DNA from: a virus | Lineage: Duplodnaviria; Heunggongvirae; Uroviricota; Caudoviricetes | Strand: one strand, 5' to 3' | IMG/VR virus record: IMGVR_UViG_2690316099_000008 | Length of the DNA stretch: 4,055 bases | Shown here: positions 1 to 4,022 of the stretch, piece by piece | How positions within the stretch are numbered: position 1 is the first letter of the stretch | Layout: each line of letters starts with the position of its first letter | Program-made: the position numbers and the translations under genes | Notes under the pieces: model-generated | Seen by the model: only the letters and a program-made list of their open reading frames with translations | Databases searched by the model: none | Told to the model about the DNA's origin: nothing

Positions 1-31
1 TCGCTCGCTCTCACCACTGAGCTAAAGGGCC
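1..31 (-). tRNA. 5' portion of a tRNA gene running off the left edge (acceptor-stem strand, D-arm, start of anticodon stem). Resembles Ile(CAU)-type tRNAs found downstream of Q in lambdoid/Stx-type phages; the anticodon lies outside the window.
   Basis: Minus strand from coordinate 31 reads GGCCCTT-TA-GCTC-AGTGGTGA-GAGC-G-AGCGA: 7-nt acceptor strand, U8, GCTC/GAGC D-stem with an 8-nt D-loop containing GG, then the anticodon-stem 5' strand. Similarity to Ile-type tRNA is from memory, not a search. Confidence 0.55.
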
Positions 32-230: not shown

Positions 231-270
231 ATCGTTATGACGAATTTACCACAGATTCCGGAAAAATCAA
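231..270 (-). promoter_or_regulatory. Lambda pR'-like late promoter with a sigma70-dependent pause element; the Q-utilisation region.
   Basis: Minus strand: -35 TTGATT (270..265), 16-nt spacer ending in TGg (extended -10), -10 TAAATT (248..243), 6 nt, then AACGAT (236..231) followed by GGG. As I recall it, lambda pR' has the same TAAATT-N6-AACGAT-GGG arrangement. The predicted start falls on the Q stop codon. Confidence 0.6.
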
Positions 271-1089
271 CCTAGTTACCTTTTTTAACTGCCGCTCAGC
301 CCATGCTTCTTCAATATCAAACCGGGTCACCAGCGCATCATAAAATTTCTTAACTGTTTTTTCCCATGACGCGCGTGTTATCTGGTTTGTCACCTCGCAT
401 ATAGCATTAAATGCCTCCGTTGATGGTAGTCTTTCATAGCCACGACCACCACAACGCTGGCAGTCTCTGATAACAGGCATACCACGTTTTACCGACTCTT
501 CACGATGAATGGCGACACCACGCCCACGGCAATCCTTACAGGCGGTGGAAACCTCACCCTTTCCGCCACACTCCGGACAGGCAACTTTTACCACCTCCCT
601 GACTTTTTTCCATTCTTCCCAGTAAGACGGATACACACCTTTCGTACACTTTGCCCATACCGGCGGCTTACCATCCGGATACTGGACCTTGTTTGTAAAA
701 ACTACGCTTTCAATAAATTTTTCCCCATAGCAACAAGGGCACTGCTTTTTACTCGCTGCGCTGCGGGCATAATCCTCAAAAGCGTACGAAGCCATAATGC
801 GCATCACTACCGGTTTTATTTCTGCCGGAAGTTTTCTCAACGCCGCCACACGATCGCACCGACTGAGTGCATAATCTGCCAGTAATTCTGTTGCCCGCGC
901 CCTGTCATTCATACTGATGCCCATTTTCCCCAGGAACGCAGAAAACCCCATCTCAGCCCGATTCTGTGTCATGCCCTGCGCGGCCATCACATCAGTGATA
1001 CTCAGCGCATCTTTCGACGTTGAGGCCGATGCATCAGTCAGGCCGGGGGATTTTGGGGAGTAGTATTTCGGTAAATCTTCCAGTTTCAT
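235..1089 (-). CDS. Q: Late-gene antitermination protein Q-like (284 aa) with a Cys-rich zinc-binding region.
   Basis: Intact 284-aa ORF. Position is diagnostic: directly downstream of rusA (ATGA start/stop overlap) and directly upstream of a lambda-like pR'/pause element and terminator. Contains CPCC plus three CxxCxGxG repeats (aa 117-213). Family assignment rests on synteny and recalled similarity to Q82/QuuQ-type prophage antiterminators, not on a search. Confidence 0.7.
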   Translation of the reverse strand: MKLEDLPKYYSPKSPGLTDASASTSKDALSITDVMAAQGMTQNRAEMGFSAFLGKMGISMNDRARATELLADYALSRCDRVAALRKLPAEIKPVVMRIMASYAFEDYARSAASKKQCPCCYGEKFIESVVFTNKVQYPDGKPPVWAKCTKGVYPSYWEEWKKVREVVKVACPECGGKGEVSTACKDCRGRGVAIHREESVKRGMPVIRDCQRCGGRGYERLPSTEAFNAICEVTNQITRASWEKTVKKFYDALVTRFDIEEAWAERQLKKVTRLIFPESVVNSS

Positions 1090-1460
1090 TTTTTGACCTG
1101 CTCTTCATGCATTATGGGGTAAATCTTCACCCCCAGACGTCCACCAGATACTGGCTGACCACGAACGATATTGATTTCATCAAACTGCTCATCGTCCATT
1201 AACACTCCCGCATGTGTCAGTGCATCCAGTGGTGCTTTCAGGATATTGTCCAGGTCACGACGGCGCTTATCCGGTGGCTCTGCAATAATCTTTATCGCCA
1301 GTCTTCCGGACAGGCTTAATTTCAGTCGCTGCTGACGGACAATAAGCGCCACATCCCGGCGATAACGCTCACCGGCTTTTGATACAAAATATGTGTTGTC
1401 ACGACGTCGCCAGTAAGTATTCACCGTCGGCGGATAAGGTAAAATAAACTCATGGCGCAT
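1086..1460 (-). CDS. rusA: Crossover junction endodeoxyribonuclease RusA (Holliday junction resolvase), 124 aa, intact.
   Basis: Translation carries RusA hallmarks: LPYPPTVNTYWRR near the N-terminus, the acidic catalytic block PDKRRRDLDN...LMDDEQ, and GGRL near the C-terminus. Its stop overlaps the Q start (ATGA) and its start overlaps the upstream gene stop (TGATG). Confidence 0.85.
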   Translation of the reverse strand: MRHEFILPYPPTVNTYWRRRDNTYFVSKAGERYRRDVALIVRQQRLKLSLSGRLAIKIIAEPPDKRRRDLDNILKAPLDALTHAGVLMDDEQFDEINIVRGQPVSGGRLGVKIYPIMHEEQVKK

Positions 1461-1717
1461 CAGCGCAGCACCTCCTGCACCAGTTTTTCAAACTTTCCGA
1501 CTCTGGTTTCCAGCTCTGCCACACAGTCCACCAGCTCATCTACTGCTTTCTGTGCGCGATGCTTCGCCTGCATCAGTTCCCGAAGCGCGGGTACCATATC
1601 TTTACGGATAGCGTCTTTTGTTATGCCCGTTTTTTCGAGTTGTTCAGCATGACGCAGCATTTCCTGCGCGTGTTTACGCAATTGTTCAGGGGTAAAAGTC
1701 ATTGTCTGGTTGTTCAA
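1460..1717 (-). CDS. Conserved hypothetical protein, 85 aa, helical and charged (likely coiled-coil), function unknown (copy 1).
   Basis: ORF conserved in two diverged copies in this window: by hand count about 30 nt differences over 258 bp but only 6 aa changes, i.e. mostly synonymous. Translationally coupled to rusA. The start may be TTG at 1717 (GGAG about 8 nt upstream) or the internal ATG at 1702. Confidence 0.7.
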   Translation of the reverse strand: MNNQTMTFTPEQLRKHAQEMLRHAEQLEKTGITKDAIRKDMVPALRELMQAKHRAQKAVDELVDCVAELETRVGKFEKLVQEVLR

Positions 1718-1837
1718 AAGAAACGCTCCATCTTACTGCTGTCAGTTCGTTTATTACTGTATCTGCGCGGATTGCCGGGCTTCATGGGAGTGGAAAGCAC
1801 CCGTGCACTTTCCTGGTCCACAGGCAGAAAATGTCCG
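1714..1837 (-). pseudogene. 3'-terminal fragment (last 41 codons) of a second DnaB-family helicase gene, truncated at its 5' side by an IS2 end.
   Basis: Minus-strand translation GHFLPVDQESARVLSTPMKPGNPRRYSNKRTDSSKMERFF* aligns in frame with the C-terminus of the intact helicase at 2292..3683. The IS2 left terminal repeat begins at 1838. Confidence 0.6.
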
Positions 1838-1879
1838 TAGACTGGCCCCCTGAATCTCCAGACAACCAGTATCACTTAA
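1838..1879 (+). mobile_element. IS2 left terminal inverted repeat (outer end at 1838, element interior to the right), followed by a single n at 1880; the element body is absent from the sequence.
   Basis: TAGACTGGCCCCCTGAATCTCCAGACAACCAGTATCACTTAA matches the IS2 left end as I recall it. The flanking sequence switches abruptly from helicase 3' end to mid-rusA across the n. Confidence 0.75.
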
Positions 1880-1880
1880 N

Positions 1881-2038
1881 CTTCCGGACAGGTTTAATTT
1901 CAGCCGCTGCTGGCGAACAATTAGCGTCACATCACGGCGATAACGCTCACCAACTTTTGATACAAAATATGTGCTGCCACGACGTCGCCAGTAAGTATTC
2001 ACCGTCGGCGGATAAGGTAAAATAAACTCATGGCGCAT
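1881..2038 (-). pseudogene. rusA: 5' part (first ~52 codons) of a second rusA copy, truncated by the IS2 end / n junction.
   Basis: MRHEFILPYPPTVNTYWRRRGSTYFVSKVGERYRRDVTLIVRQQRLKLNLSG... matches the N-terminus of RusA at 1086..1460. The six-frame ORF continues through the n into IS2 sequence, so the 94-aa ORF is chimeric. Confidence 0.7.
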
Positions 2039-2295
2039 CAGCGCAGCACCTCCTGCACCATTTTTTCAAACTTTCCAACTTTGGTTTCCAGCTCTGCCAC
2101 ACAATCAACGAGCTCATCCACCGCTTTTTGTGCGCGATGTTTCGCCTGCATCAGTTCCCTGAGCGCTGGCACCATATCCCGACGAATGGCATCTTTTGTT
2201 ACACCTGTTTTTTCCAGTTGTTCCGCCTGTCGCAACATTTCCTGCGCGTGTTTACGCAATTGTTCAGAGGTAAAAGTCATTGTCTGGTTGTTCAA
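2038..2295 (-). CDS. Conserved hypothetical protein, 85 aa (copy 2 of the 1460..1717 gene).
   Basis: 93% aa identity to copy 1 (6 substitutions, mostly conservative) despite about 88% nt identity. TTG start overlaps the helicase stop (TTGA) with GGAG about 8 nt upstream; alternative ATG at 2280. Confidence 0.7.
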   Translation of the reverse strand: MNNQTMTFTSEQLRKHAQEMLRQAEQLEKTGVTKDAIRRDMVPALRELMQAKHRAQKAVDELVDCVAELETKVGKFEKMVQEVLR

Positions 2296-3683
2296 AAGAA
2301 ACGCTCCATCTTACTGCTGTCGGTACGTGTATTGCTGTATCTGCGCGGCTGGGGCTGCCGCATTGGGGTGGAAAGAACCTGTGCGCTTTCCTGGTCCACA
2401 GGCAGAAAATGTCCGTTATAAAAACGCCGGTAAATCGTCCCCAGAGAACCGTTACGTTGTTTCGTGATATTAATTTCTGCTATGCCTGTAGCCTGTGTAT
2501 CCGGGTTGTACACTTCATCCCTGTAAAGCATCAGAATGATGTCTGCATCCGCCTCTATTTCTCCGGAATTTTTCAGGTCTGAGTTCATGGGACGTTTATT
2601 GGGTCTGGACTCCACACCGCGGGAGAGCTGGCTCAGCGCAATCAACGGAAAACCACCGGATTTTGCCAGGCCTTTAAGCCCCTTTGAGATTTCACCCACG
2701 GCAAGGTCATGACGCCCCGTGGTTCGGGTTTTTATCAGCCCGAGATAATCAACCACCACCAGCGCCGTTTCCGGATGTTTAATCAGATGGTGTTTCGTTG
2801 TTGCGCATATCTCATCAATGGTCAGGTTCGCCTGGTCCACCATCCAGATATTGCGCCCGGTCATCCGCCCCACCCCTTGTGAGAAACGCGCCCAGTCTTC
2901 ATCTTCAAAGTGAGCCACAGATTTCAGGCGTGATACTGGCATCCCTCCAGCCGCAGACACCATACGTTCACCAATCTGGATGTTCGCCATCTCCATGGTG
3001 AACAGAAGCACACCATGCCCCTGCTCAGTCACCTTGTCGATGATGTCCAGCGCAAGTTCGGTTTTCCCCATCGAAGGACGGGCGGCAATGAATACCAGGT
3101 CTCCGGGCTCCATACCGCCTGTTTTTGCGTCCAGTTCATCAATACCGGTCATCAACGTCCTGGATTTCTCCAGCCCCTGATTCCGGCATTCAACACGCTC
3201 AACCACTTCCGGAAGCACATCATCAATATGTACCGGCTGAATGACGCCCTTTCCTGTCGACAGTGTGACCATCATGTTCTGCGCATCCTTCAGGGCATCT
3301 TCAGCTGCTTCACAGGTATGCGCATCACGTAATTTCTGCAGCGCCTCATTCAGTGTTTTTTCTGCATCGCGCAGTGCGGCATTGCGCCGCAACGCTGCAA
3401 CATAGTGCTCCAGTGAAGACTTCACCCAGGTTTTACGCCCGGTATCAGTAATCACCGGGGCAAGTTCCGGCATCTCATTACACAACAGCACGGGGTCAAT
3501 CACTCCTGAAACACGGGCCTGTCTGCAGATGCCTGTGTAGATATCCCGATACGCTCGTACAGAAAAAATGTCCGCCGGTAGTGTGATCAGAATATCCATC
3601 ACTTCATGATCTGCCCCACGCAGAAAGAATGCGCCAATGACAGCGCCTTCCAGGTCATCATTACGCCAGACTGGTGTTGTCAT
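2292..3683 (-). CDS. DnaB-family replicative DNA helicase, phage-encoded, 464 aa from the ATG at 3683.
   Basis: Walker A GDLVFIAARPSMGKT; DnaB C-terminal domain blocks (VVVDYLGLI, LSQLSRGVESRPNKRPMNSDLKNSGEIEADADIILMLYRDEVY, KQRNGSLGTI); DnaB N-terminal domain similarity. GAGGTG Shine-Dalgarno 7 nt upstream of the ATG. The longer 510-aa ORF in the track starts at a GTG inside the IS2 end and is rejected. Confidence 0.85.
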   Translation of the reverse strand: MTTPVWRNDDLEGAVIGAFFLRGADHEVMDILITLPADIFSVRAYRDIYTGICRQARVSGVIDPVLLCNEMPELAPVITDTGRKTWVKSSLEHYVAALRRNAALRDAEKTLNEALQKLRDAHTCEAAEDALKDAQNMMVTLSTGKGVIQPVHIDDVLPEVVERVECRNQGLEKSRTLMTGIDELDAKTGGMEPGDLVFIAARPSMGKTELALDIIDKVTEQGHGVLLFTMEMANIQIGERMVSAAGGMPVSRLKSVAHFEDEDWARFSQGVGRMTGRNIWMVDQANLTIDEICATTKHHLIKHPETALVVVDYLGLIKTRTTGRHDLAVGEISKGLKGLAKSGGFPLIALSQLSRGVESRPNKRPMNSDLKNSGEIEADADIILMLYRDEVYNPDTQATGIAEINITKQRNGSLGTIYRRFYNGHFLPVDQESAQVLSTPMRQPQPRRYSNTRTDSSKMERFF

Positions 3684-3787
3684 GCAGCCACACCTCTGAT
3701 ACAAGAACGGTAGCTGGGCCAGTTGAACGACAACCAGTTGCGCCCCCCGTCTGTGATCCTGTCGGCAATGCGGGGGCTGATGAACGC

Positions 3788-3840
3788 TGGATTTGCCCCT
3801 ATATTTCCAGACACCTGTTATCACTTAACCCATTACTGGC
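3788..3840 (-). mobile_element. IS2 right terminal inverted repeat (outer end at 3788, element interior toward higher coordinates), running into the N gap.
   Basis: Plus strand TGGATTTGCCCCTATATTTCCAGACACCTGTTATCACTTAACCCATTAC is the reverse complement of the IS2 right end as I recall it. It lies 104 bp upstream of the helicase start codon. Confidence 0.75.
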
Positions 3841-4022
3841 NNNNNNNNNNNNNNNNNNNNNNNNNNNNNNNNNNNNNNNNNNNNNNNNNNNNNNNNNNNN
3901 NNNNNNNNNNNNNNNNNNNNNNNNNNNNNNNNNNNNNNNNNNNNNNNNNNNNNNNNNNNNNNNNNNNNNNNNNNNNNNNNNNNNNNNNNNNNNNNNNNNN
4001 NNNNNNNNNNNNNNNNNNNNNN
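3841..4022. other. Assembly gap (182 N).
   Basis: Run of n characters; presumably the collapsed IS2 body and/or unknown sequence. Confidence 0.95.

Follow-up and report, generated by a model that had tools for sequence, protein, structure and literature searches.

The window analyzed here, the whole stretch of 4,055 nucleotides of a phage record, harbors two versions of an open reading frame of 85 codons plus a stop (ORF85) on the − strand, copy A at 1460..1717 and copy B at 2038..2295. The locus raises the questions of whether this frame is a gene, why it appears twice, and what its product could do. The explanation that we favor, with a probability of about 75%, is that ORF85 is a genuine gene at the head of a ninR-type region, that it encodes a coiled-coil module, and that the two copies are alleles joined by scaffolding.

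Assembly of the Window

The window contains a single "n" at position 1879, a scaffold join of two contigs, and the sequences to its left and right match different loci. Positions 170-1879 and 1881-3840 map to ∼2.53 Mb and 0.92 Mb, respectively, of the same complete chromosome, i.e., ∼1.6 Mb apart, with 99.5% identity for the left half (L006/L012) and 100% for the right half (L015/L018). The "n" is located one base before an 80-bp exact repeat common to both rusA genes. The left half carries prophage remnant A, comprising a Q-type antiterminator of 284 aa (235..1089, − strand; Pfam Antiterm PF03589, E 7e-55) that forms the downstream end of the nin-type region, rusA of 124 aa (1086..1460, − strand; Pfam RusA, E 2e-16), copy A of ORF85, and the 3′ remnant of a DnaB-type helicase gene (1714..1836, − strand; 40 codons and the stop). 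The helicase gene is cut by an insertion element which, like that at 3789..3840, we take to be IS2. The outer 42 bp of its left end (1837..1878), with which the left contig ends, showed a 100% match just upstream of 121-aa and 301-aa IS3-family transposase genes (L014/L015/L018), and in complete genomes the sequence upstream of this helicase 3′ end is IS2 carrying an IS21-family insertion. Remnant B in the right half consists of a rusA 5′ fragment of ∼53 codons (1880..2038, − strand; 123 aa at full length in complete genomes), copy B of ORF85, and a DnaB-type replicative helicase of 463 aa (2292..3683, − strand; Pfam DnaB_C, E 1e-72) starting with ATG at 3683. This 463-aa gene is called in L015, and the 510-aa GTG ORF listed for the window over-extends into IS2. 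The outer 52 bp of the IS2 right end (3789..3840), continuous with IS3-family transposase genes in L015 and annotated as "IS3 family transposase" in E. coli genomes, are followed by a gap of 182 N (3841-4022).

If the window were correct as it stands, an IS2-associated tandem duplication of rusA′-ORF85-helicase′ within one prophage would have generated the copies as diverging paralogues. The sequence is continuous apart from the one "n," and rearrangements in Shigella are promoted by IS elements. Such a duplication is nevertheless very improbable, as the halves map to two loci of one chromosome at the above identities, the right part starts exactly at the edge of the 80-bp rusA repeat, and the rusA side of the "n" lacks an IS2 end. 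None of 5,426 complete E. coli genomes contained the junction across the "n," and scanning the GTDB species representatives for exact matches did not reveal it either. Moreover, 11% divergence with a dS of 0.57 is far too old for a local event in a recently IS-damaged remnant. Judged from the mapping, the ORF85 copies are alleles that scaffolding brought side by side from two different prophage remnants, both IS-damaged, in a genome of the Shigella sonnei type. The initial annotation, which described two copies, was right in that both ORFs are real, but they are not neighbors in real genomes. As a practical warning, what looks like a tandem duplication is an artefact of scaffolding across an 80-bp repeat that the two prophages have in common, and features resting on the adjacency of copies A and B (a 94-aa chimeric ORF, "duplication" biology) should be discarded.

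Coding Evidence and the Antisense Frame

Comparison of copies A and B revealed 29 differences over 258 nucleotides, in line with the ∼30 claimed earlier, with 21 at third, six at first, and two at second codon positions. At the protein level, exactly the six substitutions already listed for the 85 residues were recovered, namely, P10S, H23Q, I32V, K39R, R72K, and L79M. Nei-Gojobori analysis gave 22.5 synonymous and 6.5 non-synonymous differences (dS 0.57, dN 0.033, omega 0.059); random placement over sites would make 78% of the differences non-synonymous, and the probability of seven or fewer non-synonymous changes among 29 is 1e-9. The duplicated pieces of the neighboring genes were less constrained than ORF85, with omega of 0.25 for the 5′ part of rusA and 0.26 for the helicase 3′ end. 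Four of the other five frames showed omega of ∼1 or more, and the antisense frame that shares its wobble positions with ORF85 showed 0.094; hence, the coding strand is not identifiable from the two-copy comparison alone.

A tblastn search retrieved 182 matches over 181 loci, all from just two E. coli clades that are close relatives, and the frame comprised 85 intact codons in all but one match (82 codons). Across the 65 unique sequences, variable sites numbered 53, 35, and 76 at codon positions 1, 2, and 3, and the median pairwise omega was 0.17. The initial annotation had proposed a real gene under purifying selection and had named frameshifts, stops, or a dN/dS near 1 in a wider set as evidence against it; no frameshifts were found, and both the intact frame (181/182) and the low median omega uphold the proposal. 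A cis-acting DNA or RNA element in place of a gene was excluded by the third-position substitutions and by protein homology at 30% identity, and searching Rfam across the window at E ≤ 0.1 gave no RNA family. On the evidence of these substitution patterns, ORF85 is a genuine, strongly constrained protein-coding gene of lambdoid (pro)phages. As both remnants are IS-damaged, the selection signal is the history of ORF85 in functional phages and not necessarily present selection in this host. Its expression in this genome is doubtful, owing to the degraded state of both prophages and the lack of a sigma-70-like promoter in the window.

A selected or second product could also be encoded on the + strand by an antisense gene overlapping ORF85 in the wobble-sharing frame (antisense ORFs at 1452..1652, 66 aa, and 2030..2467, 145 aa), the low omega of which would fit such a product. 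Among unique E. coli-type sequences, 88% lack a stop in this frame, as do all stand-alone homologues of at least 58% identity, and synonymous resampling leaves just 12.5% of sequences stop-free. T-ending codons before His/Gln make up 2.3%, compared with 33% elsewhere in ORF85 (1/23 at the lineage level, P ∼0.001-0.015). However, a low omega is automatic in a frame sharing wobble positions, copy A has a stop in its own antisense frame that leaves an ORF of just 66 aa, and one to two stops occur in the distant relatives L004, L182, L194, and L196. An open frame with a conserved start was not found across the homologues: start positions shift with the downstream neighbor, and many loci are without any ATG. 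The product would be of low complexity and rich in Ser, Cys, and Thr, all neighboring genes and couplings are on the − strand, and the longer relatives described below carry the ORF85 domain as an in-frame, sense-strand fusion. Taken with these points, an antisense gene appears extremely improbable, and we retain the sense frame as the product of the locus.

Homologues and Database Records

ORF85 is not a discovery, being routinely annotated as WP_001064800.1, phiP27 L20, and PHROG 2565. RefSeq labels WP_001064800.1 as "hypothetical protein," neither this record nor that of L20 gives a function, and literature searches by accession and by phiP27/L20 returned nothing relevant to ORF85. The identical 85-codon frame is annotated by PGAP in FDAARGOS_944 as a CDS of 258 nt, and the exact copy A protein is present in Shigella sonnei and Enterobacteriaceae records. 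Relatives could be detected with HMMs down to ∼30% identity and were aligned without gaps; P43 and D64 were invariant, and A24, K39, and D60 near-invariant. When 1.84 billion proteins were clustered at 50%, the family had only 33 representatives, and its host range is narrow, confined to Enterobacterales. Searching a protein database again, now using the family alignment, recovered just the close E. coli relatives already found, and a viral-contig scan with P0126 gave no match. Residues 2-84 matched the PHROG 2565 profile (unknown function) with E-values of 1.2e-32 for copy A and 5.3e-31 for copy B, and more distant stand-alone members matched it as well. The match is limited to profile positions 121-203 of 204, indicating that this PHROG holds longer members, of which ORF85 represents the C-terminal domain.

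Start Codon and Genomic Slot

The initial annotation suggested that ORF85 is translationally coupled on both sides. In agreement with this, the TTG start of copy A (1717..1715) overlaps the helicase stop in the sequence TTGA (1714-1717), and the ORF85 TGA stop and the rusA ATG have base 1460 in common. A Shine-Dalgarno-like GGAG motif within the helicase 3′ end precedes the TTG of copy A by 8 nt (1726..1729, − strand), and the TTG of copy B at 2295..2293 is preceded by the motif at the same distance (2304-2307, − strand). Among the 65 unique homologues, 64 start with TTG and the other with GTG; the internal ATG at codon 6 is found in 33 and, being missing from half of the homologues, was rejected as the start. 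From this conservation, the start of ORF85 is likely the TTG, giving a protein of 85 aa rather than 80. The phiP27 protein L20 (P27p20, NP_543072.1), 94% identical to ORF85 over 85 residues and placed similarly directly after a DnaB-type helicase, is by contrast annotated from the internal ATG with 80 aa. The gene that follows L20 codes for 126 aa and has the RefSeq label Q-like, whereas ORF85 is followed by rusA.

The nin-type position between helicase and rusA noted in the initial annotation was also evident from the gene context, the arrangement being that of the region between P and Q defined as ninR, in which DUF968 is an Orf-like domain fused to HNH (PMC4118853). The 181 ORFs upstream of ORF85 include 164 full DnaB-type helicase genes and 13 truncated helicase remnants, and a 4-nt overlap with the upstream gene is present in 164 loci. 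Downstream, DUF968 (71 loci), RusA (42), Q (41), Dam, or a small HTH gene was found. ORF85 thus lies in the slot of PHROG 2565/phiP27 L20, after replication genes and before DUF968/RusA/Dam/Q. Homologues at 35-66% identity adjoin unrelated replication proteins without a DnaB gene nearby, the upstream gene being a Phg_2220_C/HTH_36 initiator in L183 and a GPA-type replication protein in L182; upstream of the homologue of Hafnia phage yong2 are PerC and a hypothetical gene. ORF85 opens a ninR-type region and directly follows replication genes of any type. In mosaic phages, gene order is generally a weak guide to function.

Strict functional coupling to the DnaB helicase was rejected, since distant members follow other replication proteins. 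A looser version is that ORF85 is a helicase-specific accessory factor that binds, regulates, or helps load the upstream DnaB-type helicase, which would account for the constant 4-nt overlap and for the joint inheritance of helicase and ORF85. Such a factor would fit the constancy of the helicase-ORF85 pair next to a variable downstream neighbor (RusA, DUF968, Q, or the small HTH gene), a pattern that places a mosaic boundary after ORF85. We consider a helicase factor quite unlikely, as the homologues of 35-66% identity in L183, L182, and yong2 follow non-DnaB replication proteins, the longer relatives follow either N, in the leftward operon, or KilA-N, and the 181 loci, taken from only two close E. 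coli clades, owe their number partly to common descent.

Predicted Structure of the ORF85 Product

The initial annotation described the product as helical and probably coiled-coil and asked for a structure prediction. The AF2 model of ORF85, a monomer with pTM 0.47, showed a single helix spanning residues 10-84 with pLDDT of 86 overall and >93 for residues 41-85. Hydrophobicity averaged over the family repeated every 3.5 residues and stayed in phase from residue 10 to residue 84, with a periodicity power of 93 at 3.5 as compared to 26 at 3.6. Both results agree with the earlier description. The ORF85 product is predicted to be a protein of ∼10 kDa that consists essentially of a single amphipathic helix of 75 residues, its heptad repeat uninterrupted, and, as modeled, is a coiled coil. 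A lone amphipathic helix of 75 residues cannot stand alone, and the protein would consequently be either a homo-oligomeric coiled coil or wrapped onto a partner. The invariant Pro43 and the mid-helix DExxD motif are suggestive of a specific interface or kink; a plain coiled coil leaves them unexplained.

Searches for known families were consistent with the earlier statement that no function could be assigned, none giving a match above threshold. The best Pfam match was BLOC1_2, with 20 bits against a cut-off of 33.4, and all Pfam matches were coiled-coil noise; NCBIfam gave 0 matches, and no nin-region family of either collection was matched. The strongest similarity to PADLOC models was sub-threshold (E 0.002) and involved coiled-coil segments of ZorA and PDC-M40C. 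When PDB sequences were searched with a profile, only designed helical bundles and coiled-coil noise came up (best E 0.004), and a fold search of the model against the PDB gave 0 matches, as expected for a single helix.

Longer Winged-Helix Relatives

Phage proteins of 170-265 aa were found whose C-terminal 80 residues align with ORF85. Among these long forms, grouped in PHROG 2539, is gp10 of Shigella phage 75/02 Stx (YP_009226842.1, 237 aa), the C-terminal ∼80 residues of which are homologous to ORF85 (37% identity, E 7e-8, tblastn). ORF85 matched the PHROG 2539 profile with E 1e-17, only at positions 153-227 of 229. The pattern TPExLR...P...DExxD is common to the long forms and ORF85, and AF2 gives one long helix in the ORF85-like part of the long forms too. 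The long forms differ from ORF85 by a winged helix at the N terminus, often together with a zinc ribbon. ORF85 lacks such a DNA-binding head, containing just 8 variable residues before TPEQLR in place of the winged helix of ∼90 residues. The optional insert of the long forms matches zinc motifs of the endonuclease VII, HNH, and Lar-like families. When a long-form model was compared with viral predicted structures (BFVD), only the zinc-ribbon segment was matched, to HNH/endonuclease VII-type proteins, a match that is not informative for ORF85. Genes for the long forms either adjoin N or cI in the leftward early operon or follow KilA-N, and their surroundings include kil, cIII, gam, and anti-RecBCD genes.

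Proposed Role of ORF85

The TTG overlap and the GGAG motif would fit translation coupled to the upstream gene within a delayed-early rightward operon. The ORF85 helix could act as a module for protein-protein interaction and oligomerization. In the PHROG 2539 long forms, the corresponding helix may multimerize a winged-helix, sometimes zinc-ribbon, nucleic-acid-binding head. The stand-alone ORF85 would then be a small coiled-coil adaptor or modulator, rather than an enzyme, of the adjacent phage replication and recombination functions, i.e., the replication proteins upstream and the Orf-like DUF968, RusA, and Dam downstream. In this joint form (interaction module, multimerizer of the long forms, and stand-alone adaptor or modulator), the proposal is tentative, and we place its chances somewhat below even.

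Small early proteins of phage lambda such as Gam, CIII, and Kil bind and inhibit host proteins, and ORF85 could possibly be a host-takeover or anti-defense protein of this kind, an early coiled coil inhibiting a host nuclease, protease, division, or defense factor. It is small, early-expressed, devoid of catalytic motifs, and dispensable-looking; its relatives occupy accessory slots of both early operons, the long forms having kil, cIII, gam, and anti-RecBCD genes around them, and the invariant acidic residues D60 and D64 are borne on the long helix. However, no similarity to known inhibitors or defense-related models was detected, PADLOC yielding only sub-threshold coiled-coil noise, and the Enterobacterales-only range and strong conservation are compatible with host takeover without being specific to it. 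We regard this function as unlikely and the adaptor or modulator role as preferable.

It is also conceivable, though decidedly improbable, that the ORF85 helix is an undescribed interaction module linking a ninR-region protein to the winged-helix (in some cases zinc-ribbon) early proteins encoded right after N. If this were true, the short form might, for example, enter joint assemblies with the long forms of other prophages in the same host, or titrate them, and a new class of lambdoid early regulators would be defined.

The frame that carries the label "hypothetical protein" in prophages of E. coli and Shigella by the thousands, Stx-converting phages among them, is coding and tightly constrained. 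The present analysis adds to the database entries and literature retrieved the likely TTG start with 85 aa rather than 80, the predicted architecture of a single coiled-coil helix, the domain common to ORF85 and longer winged-helix (in some cases zinc-ribbon) proteins, and the fixed slot at the replication/ninR boundary for any type of replication module. The biological pay-off would be modest unless an interaction partner is found.

In lambda, ren and ninA are small accessory genes, the first of ninR directly after the replication genes, and lie upstream of orf/ninB, rap or rusA, and Q; the likeness of ORF85 to them is one of position only. With respect to architecture, ORF85 is comparable to E. 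coli ZapB and T4 gp57A, to which no sequence relationship was detected in any search; both are proteins of ∼80 residues folded almost wholly as one heptad-repeat helix, and they act by oligomerization and partner binding, not by catalysis.

Organization of the Window and Origin of the Repeat

All the genes of the window are carried on the minus strand. In the order of transcription, from the helicase to the Q-type antiterminator, the window comprises a 463-aa DnaB-type helicase (3683..2292; Pfam DnaB_C, E 1e-72), copy B of the 85-codon reading frame ORF85 (2295..2038), a 5' fragment of rusA of ~53 codons (2038..1880), a single 'n' (1879), a 42-bp insertion-sequence end (1878..1837), the 3'-terminal 40 codons of another helicase gene (1836..1714), ORF85 copy A (1717..1460), a full rusA (1460..1086; Pfam RusA, E 2e-16) and a 284-aa Q-type antiterminator (1089..235; PF03589, E 7e-55). 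At 3789-3840 is another insertion-sequence end, the 52-bp right end of IS2, with 182 N after it. This gap falls well short of the IS2 sequence that is missing, and its size is therefore unreliable. The window closes with 33 bp of yejO, a chromosomal autotransporter gene. The insertion-sequence ends in the window are presumably those of IS2. A mechanical ORF list gives the helicase (2292-3824) 510 aa from a GTG, running into the IS2 end; the true gene is 463 aa with its ATG at 3683 (MTTPVWRNDD...).

The repeated block (~1303-1836 and ~1880-2417) showed a mean column identity of 91% over the aligned stretches. The exact proteins of copies A and B co-occur in the same complete chromosomes (CP104423.1 and CP045526.1), and in CP104423.1 they are located at ~2.53 and ~0.92 Mb, respectively, i.e., ~1.6 Mb apart. 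Positions 170-1879 of the window matched the first locus at 99.5%, the match reaching 42 bp into the insertion sequence, and positions 1881-3840 matched the second at 100%. In the first locus, the helicase is interrupted by an IS2 that itself carries an IS21-family insertion, and the genes downstream of ORF85 encode a 124-aa RusA and a 284-aa Q of the PF03589 type. In the second, IS2 is placed upstream of an intact helicase, and those downstream of ORF85 encode a 123-aa RusA and a 128-aa Q of the PF06530 type. The right-hand piece begins one base before an 80-bp run identical between the two rusA genes, the edge of which is an expected break point of short-read assembly. No insertion-sequence end was found on the rusA side of the 'n', and the junction across it was absent from complete E. 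coli genomes and GTDB species representatives. Both exact proteins carry the source names Shigella sonnei or Shigella, and many members of their clusters are partial and lie at contig ends. We read the window as two ~1.9-kb contigs joined by a scaffolder through the single 'n', the apparent tandem repeat (1303-1836/1880-2417) as an assembly artefact whose adjacency is not real, and the 94-aa ORF spanning the 'n' (1754..2038) as a chimera of the join.

The two copies thus belong to two prophage remnants. The replication module of copy B is defective, since the DnaC-like loader and initiator genes upstream have been replaced by IS2. In the remnant bearing copy A, the PF03589 domains of Q (235-1089) contain a sub-threshold match to the DnaJ-type CXXCXGXG zinc finger (PF00684, 29 bits vs. 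a cut-off of 32.7). Downstream of this Q are two near-identical terminator-like hairpins on the minus strand (76-93 and 176-195), ACCCGCCGCCGAGCGGGT followed by a T run. The window is ~69 bp longer here than complete genomes, and its positions 1-100 and 170 onward map to overlapping segments of one comparison locus (L006); the surplus amounts to one additional copy of the hairpin unit. Positions 1-31 (minus strand) form part of a prophage-borne tRNA-Ile gene, which the matching E. coli record (L001) carries as an annotation at 4964-5039; ARAGORN gave no tRNA match as the gene is cut by the window edge.

Selection on ORF85

The initial annotation considered ORF85 a real gene under purifying selection, based on its two copies. 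These differ at 29 of 258 nucleotides, 21 of them third codon positions, and at exactly the six residues listed there. Nei-Gojobori analysis yielded an omega (dN/dS) of 0.059 at a dS of 0.57, and random placement of the changes would leave so few of them non-synonymous with a probability of ~1e-9. The adjoining duplicated rusA and helicase pieces gave an omega of ~0.25, which makes ORF85 the part of the repeat under the tightest constraint. The comparison still holds, although its two alleles come from separate prophages. As these are both degraded here, the constraint is a legacy of their past as functional phages.

A low omega (0.094) was also obtained between the copies for the antisense frame whose wobble positions coincide with those of ORF85 (1452-1652 and 2030-2467, plus strand; 3961-4560, minus strand, in the homologous locus L183). 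As this is automatic in such a frame, the coding strand needs other evidence. In favour of an overlapping antisense gene, the frame is stop-free in 88% of unique E. coli-type sequences and in all stand-alone homologues ≥58% identical, where synonymous resampling predicts just 12.5% stop-free sequences. The stop-freeness arises because a codon ending in T almost never precedes a His/Gln codon (2.3% vs. 33% elsewhere in ORF85; 1/23 at the lineage level, P about 0.001-0.015). However, copy A has a stop in this frame, distant homologues have one or two, and the product is of low complexity, rich in Ser/Cys/Thr. The antisense start codons vary with the downstream neighbour and are not conserved; hence, the frame is probably no gene, and we regard an antisense gene as very improbable.

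The sense strand was evaluated in 181 loci (160 from viral contigs, the others from phage records and assemblies), in which tblastn gave 182 matches. The frame comprised 85 intact codons in 181 matches and 82 in the other; no frameshifts were detected among the 182, and neither stops nor an omega near 1 were seen in this wider set. The 65 unique sequences vary at 53 first, 35 second and 76 third codon positions, and their median pairwise omega was 0.17. Only 33 relatives were recovered when 1.84 billion representative proteins were searched exhaustively with HMMER. The true family members among them align gap-free down to ~30% identity, with P43 and D64 invariant and A24, K39 and D60 nearly so; in longer relatives, the ORF85 domain is fused in frame, on the same strand, to N-terminal domains. 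The intact frames, low omega and distant gap-free relatives bear out a real, selected gene, one that annotations everywhere already list as encoding a hypothetical protein (phiP27 L20, WP_001064800.1, PHROG 2565).

Start Codon and Predicted Architecture

Of the 65 unique sequences, 64 have a TTG that overlaps the helicase stop (TTGA) and the remaining one has GTG; GGAG is located 8 nt upstream of the TTG. The internal ATG at codon 6, the start in the phiP27 annotation, occurs in only 33/65; in the second E. coli clade this codon encodes Ile or Thr. The product is therefore 85 aa, the length of the PGAP-annotated CDS in FDAARGOS_944.

The protein had been described as helical, charged and probably coiled-coil. 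AlphaFold2, run with a 25-sequence family alignment, modelled residues 10-84 as a single unbroken helix (mean pLDDT 86; above 93 for residues 41-85). Family-averaged hydrophobicity showed a 3.5-residue period, in phase over 10-84 (power 93 at 3.5 vs. 26 at 3.6), consistent with ~10 heptads with one irregular stretch at ~31-38. The protein has 15 basic and 14 acidic residues and a calculated pI of 7.9. From its sequence, the product is predicted to be a coiled-coil helix, and a 75-residue amphipathic helix as modelled would need partners, either itself or another protein. Pfam, NCBIfam and PDB sequence and fold searches returned no solved structure or curated family resembling it.

Genomic Slot and Possible Function

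Stand-alone members (80-93 aa) are always placed after replication genes, of whatever type. In phiP27 and the E. coli and Shigella clades, these encode a DnaC-like loader and a DnaB-like helicase; L183 has a Phg_2220_C/HTH_36 initiator, another locus (L182) has a GPA-type replication protein, and Hafnia phage yong2 has an initiator followed by PerC and a hypothetical gene. The next gene encodes DUF968 (71 loci), RusA (42), Q (41) or Dam. DUF968 combines an Orf/NinB-like domain with HNH in one fusion, and the term ninR denotes the interval between P and Q (PMC4118853). ORF85, as an early gene at the replication/ninR boundary whose TTG overlaps the upstream stop codon, hence occupies the first slot of a ninR-type region, in agreement with the nin position initially assigned. 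The Q-like proteins that follow it with a 1-nt overlap in 41 loci are of ~136 aa (MRDIQMVLERWGAW...), and in phiP27 (L002, 6258-6638, P27p21) the 126-aa gene after L20 carries the RefSeq label 'anti-termination protein Q-like'.

The long forms (PHROG 2539, 170-265 aa) consist of a winged helix, often a zinc ribbon (endonuclease VII, HNH or Lar type), a disordered linker and an ORF85-like long helix. Their genes lie either in the leftward early operon, immediately downstream of that for the N antiterminator, or in the nin region between KilA-N and DUF968. Members of this family are encoded in four comparison loci (L004, 4536-5249; L194, 5001-5738; L196, 5001-5588; L198, 5001-5519); some variants have an AlpA-type HTH instead (predicted proteins P0203 and P0222).

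The ORF85 helix may be an oligomerisation and interaction module, which on the long forms would multimerise the nucleic-acid-binding head and alone would serve as a small adaptor or modulator of the adjacent DNA replication and recombination functions. We hold this joint proposal tentatively, at roughly one chance in three. An accessory specific to the helicase would suit the members that follow one, but some follow non-helicase replication proteins, and such a role is unlikely. That this early gene encodes a host-takeover or anti-defence inhibitor appears doubtful.

The observation is confirmed and its interpretation supported, with no surprise for a phage specialist. The start codon, the coiled-coil architecture, the domain common to long winged-helix proteins and the fixed replication/ninR slot are added here. 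With respect to known systems, ORF85 corresponds in position, and only in position, to lambda ren or ninA.
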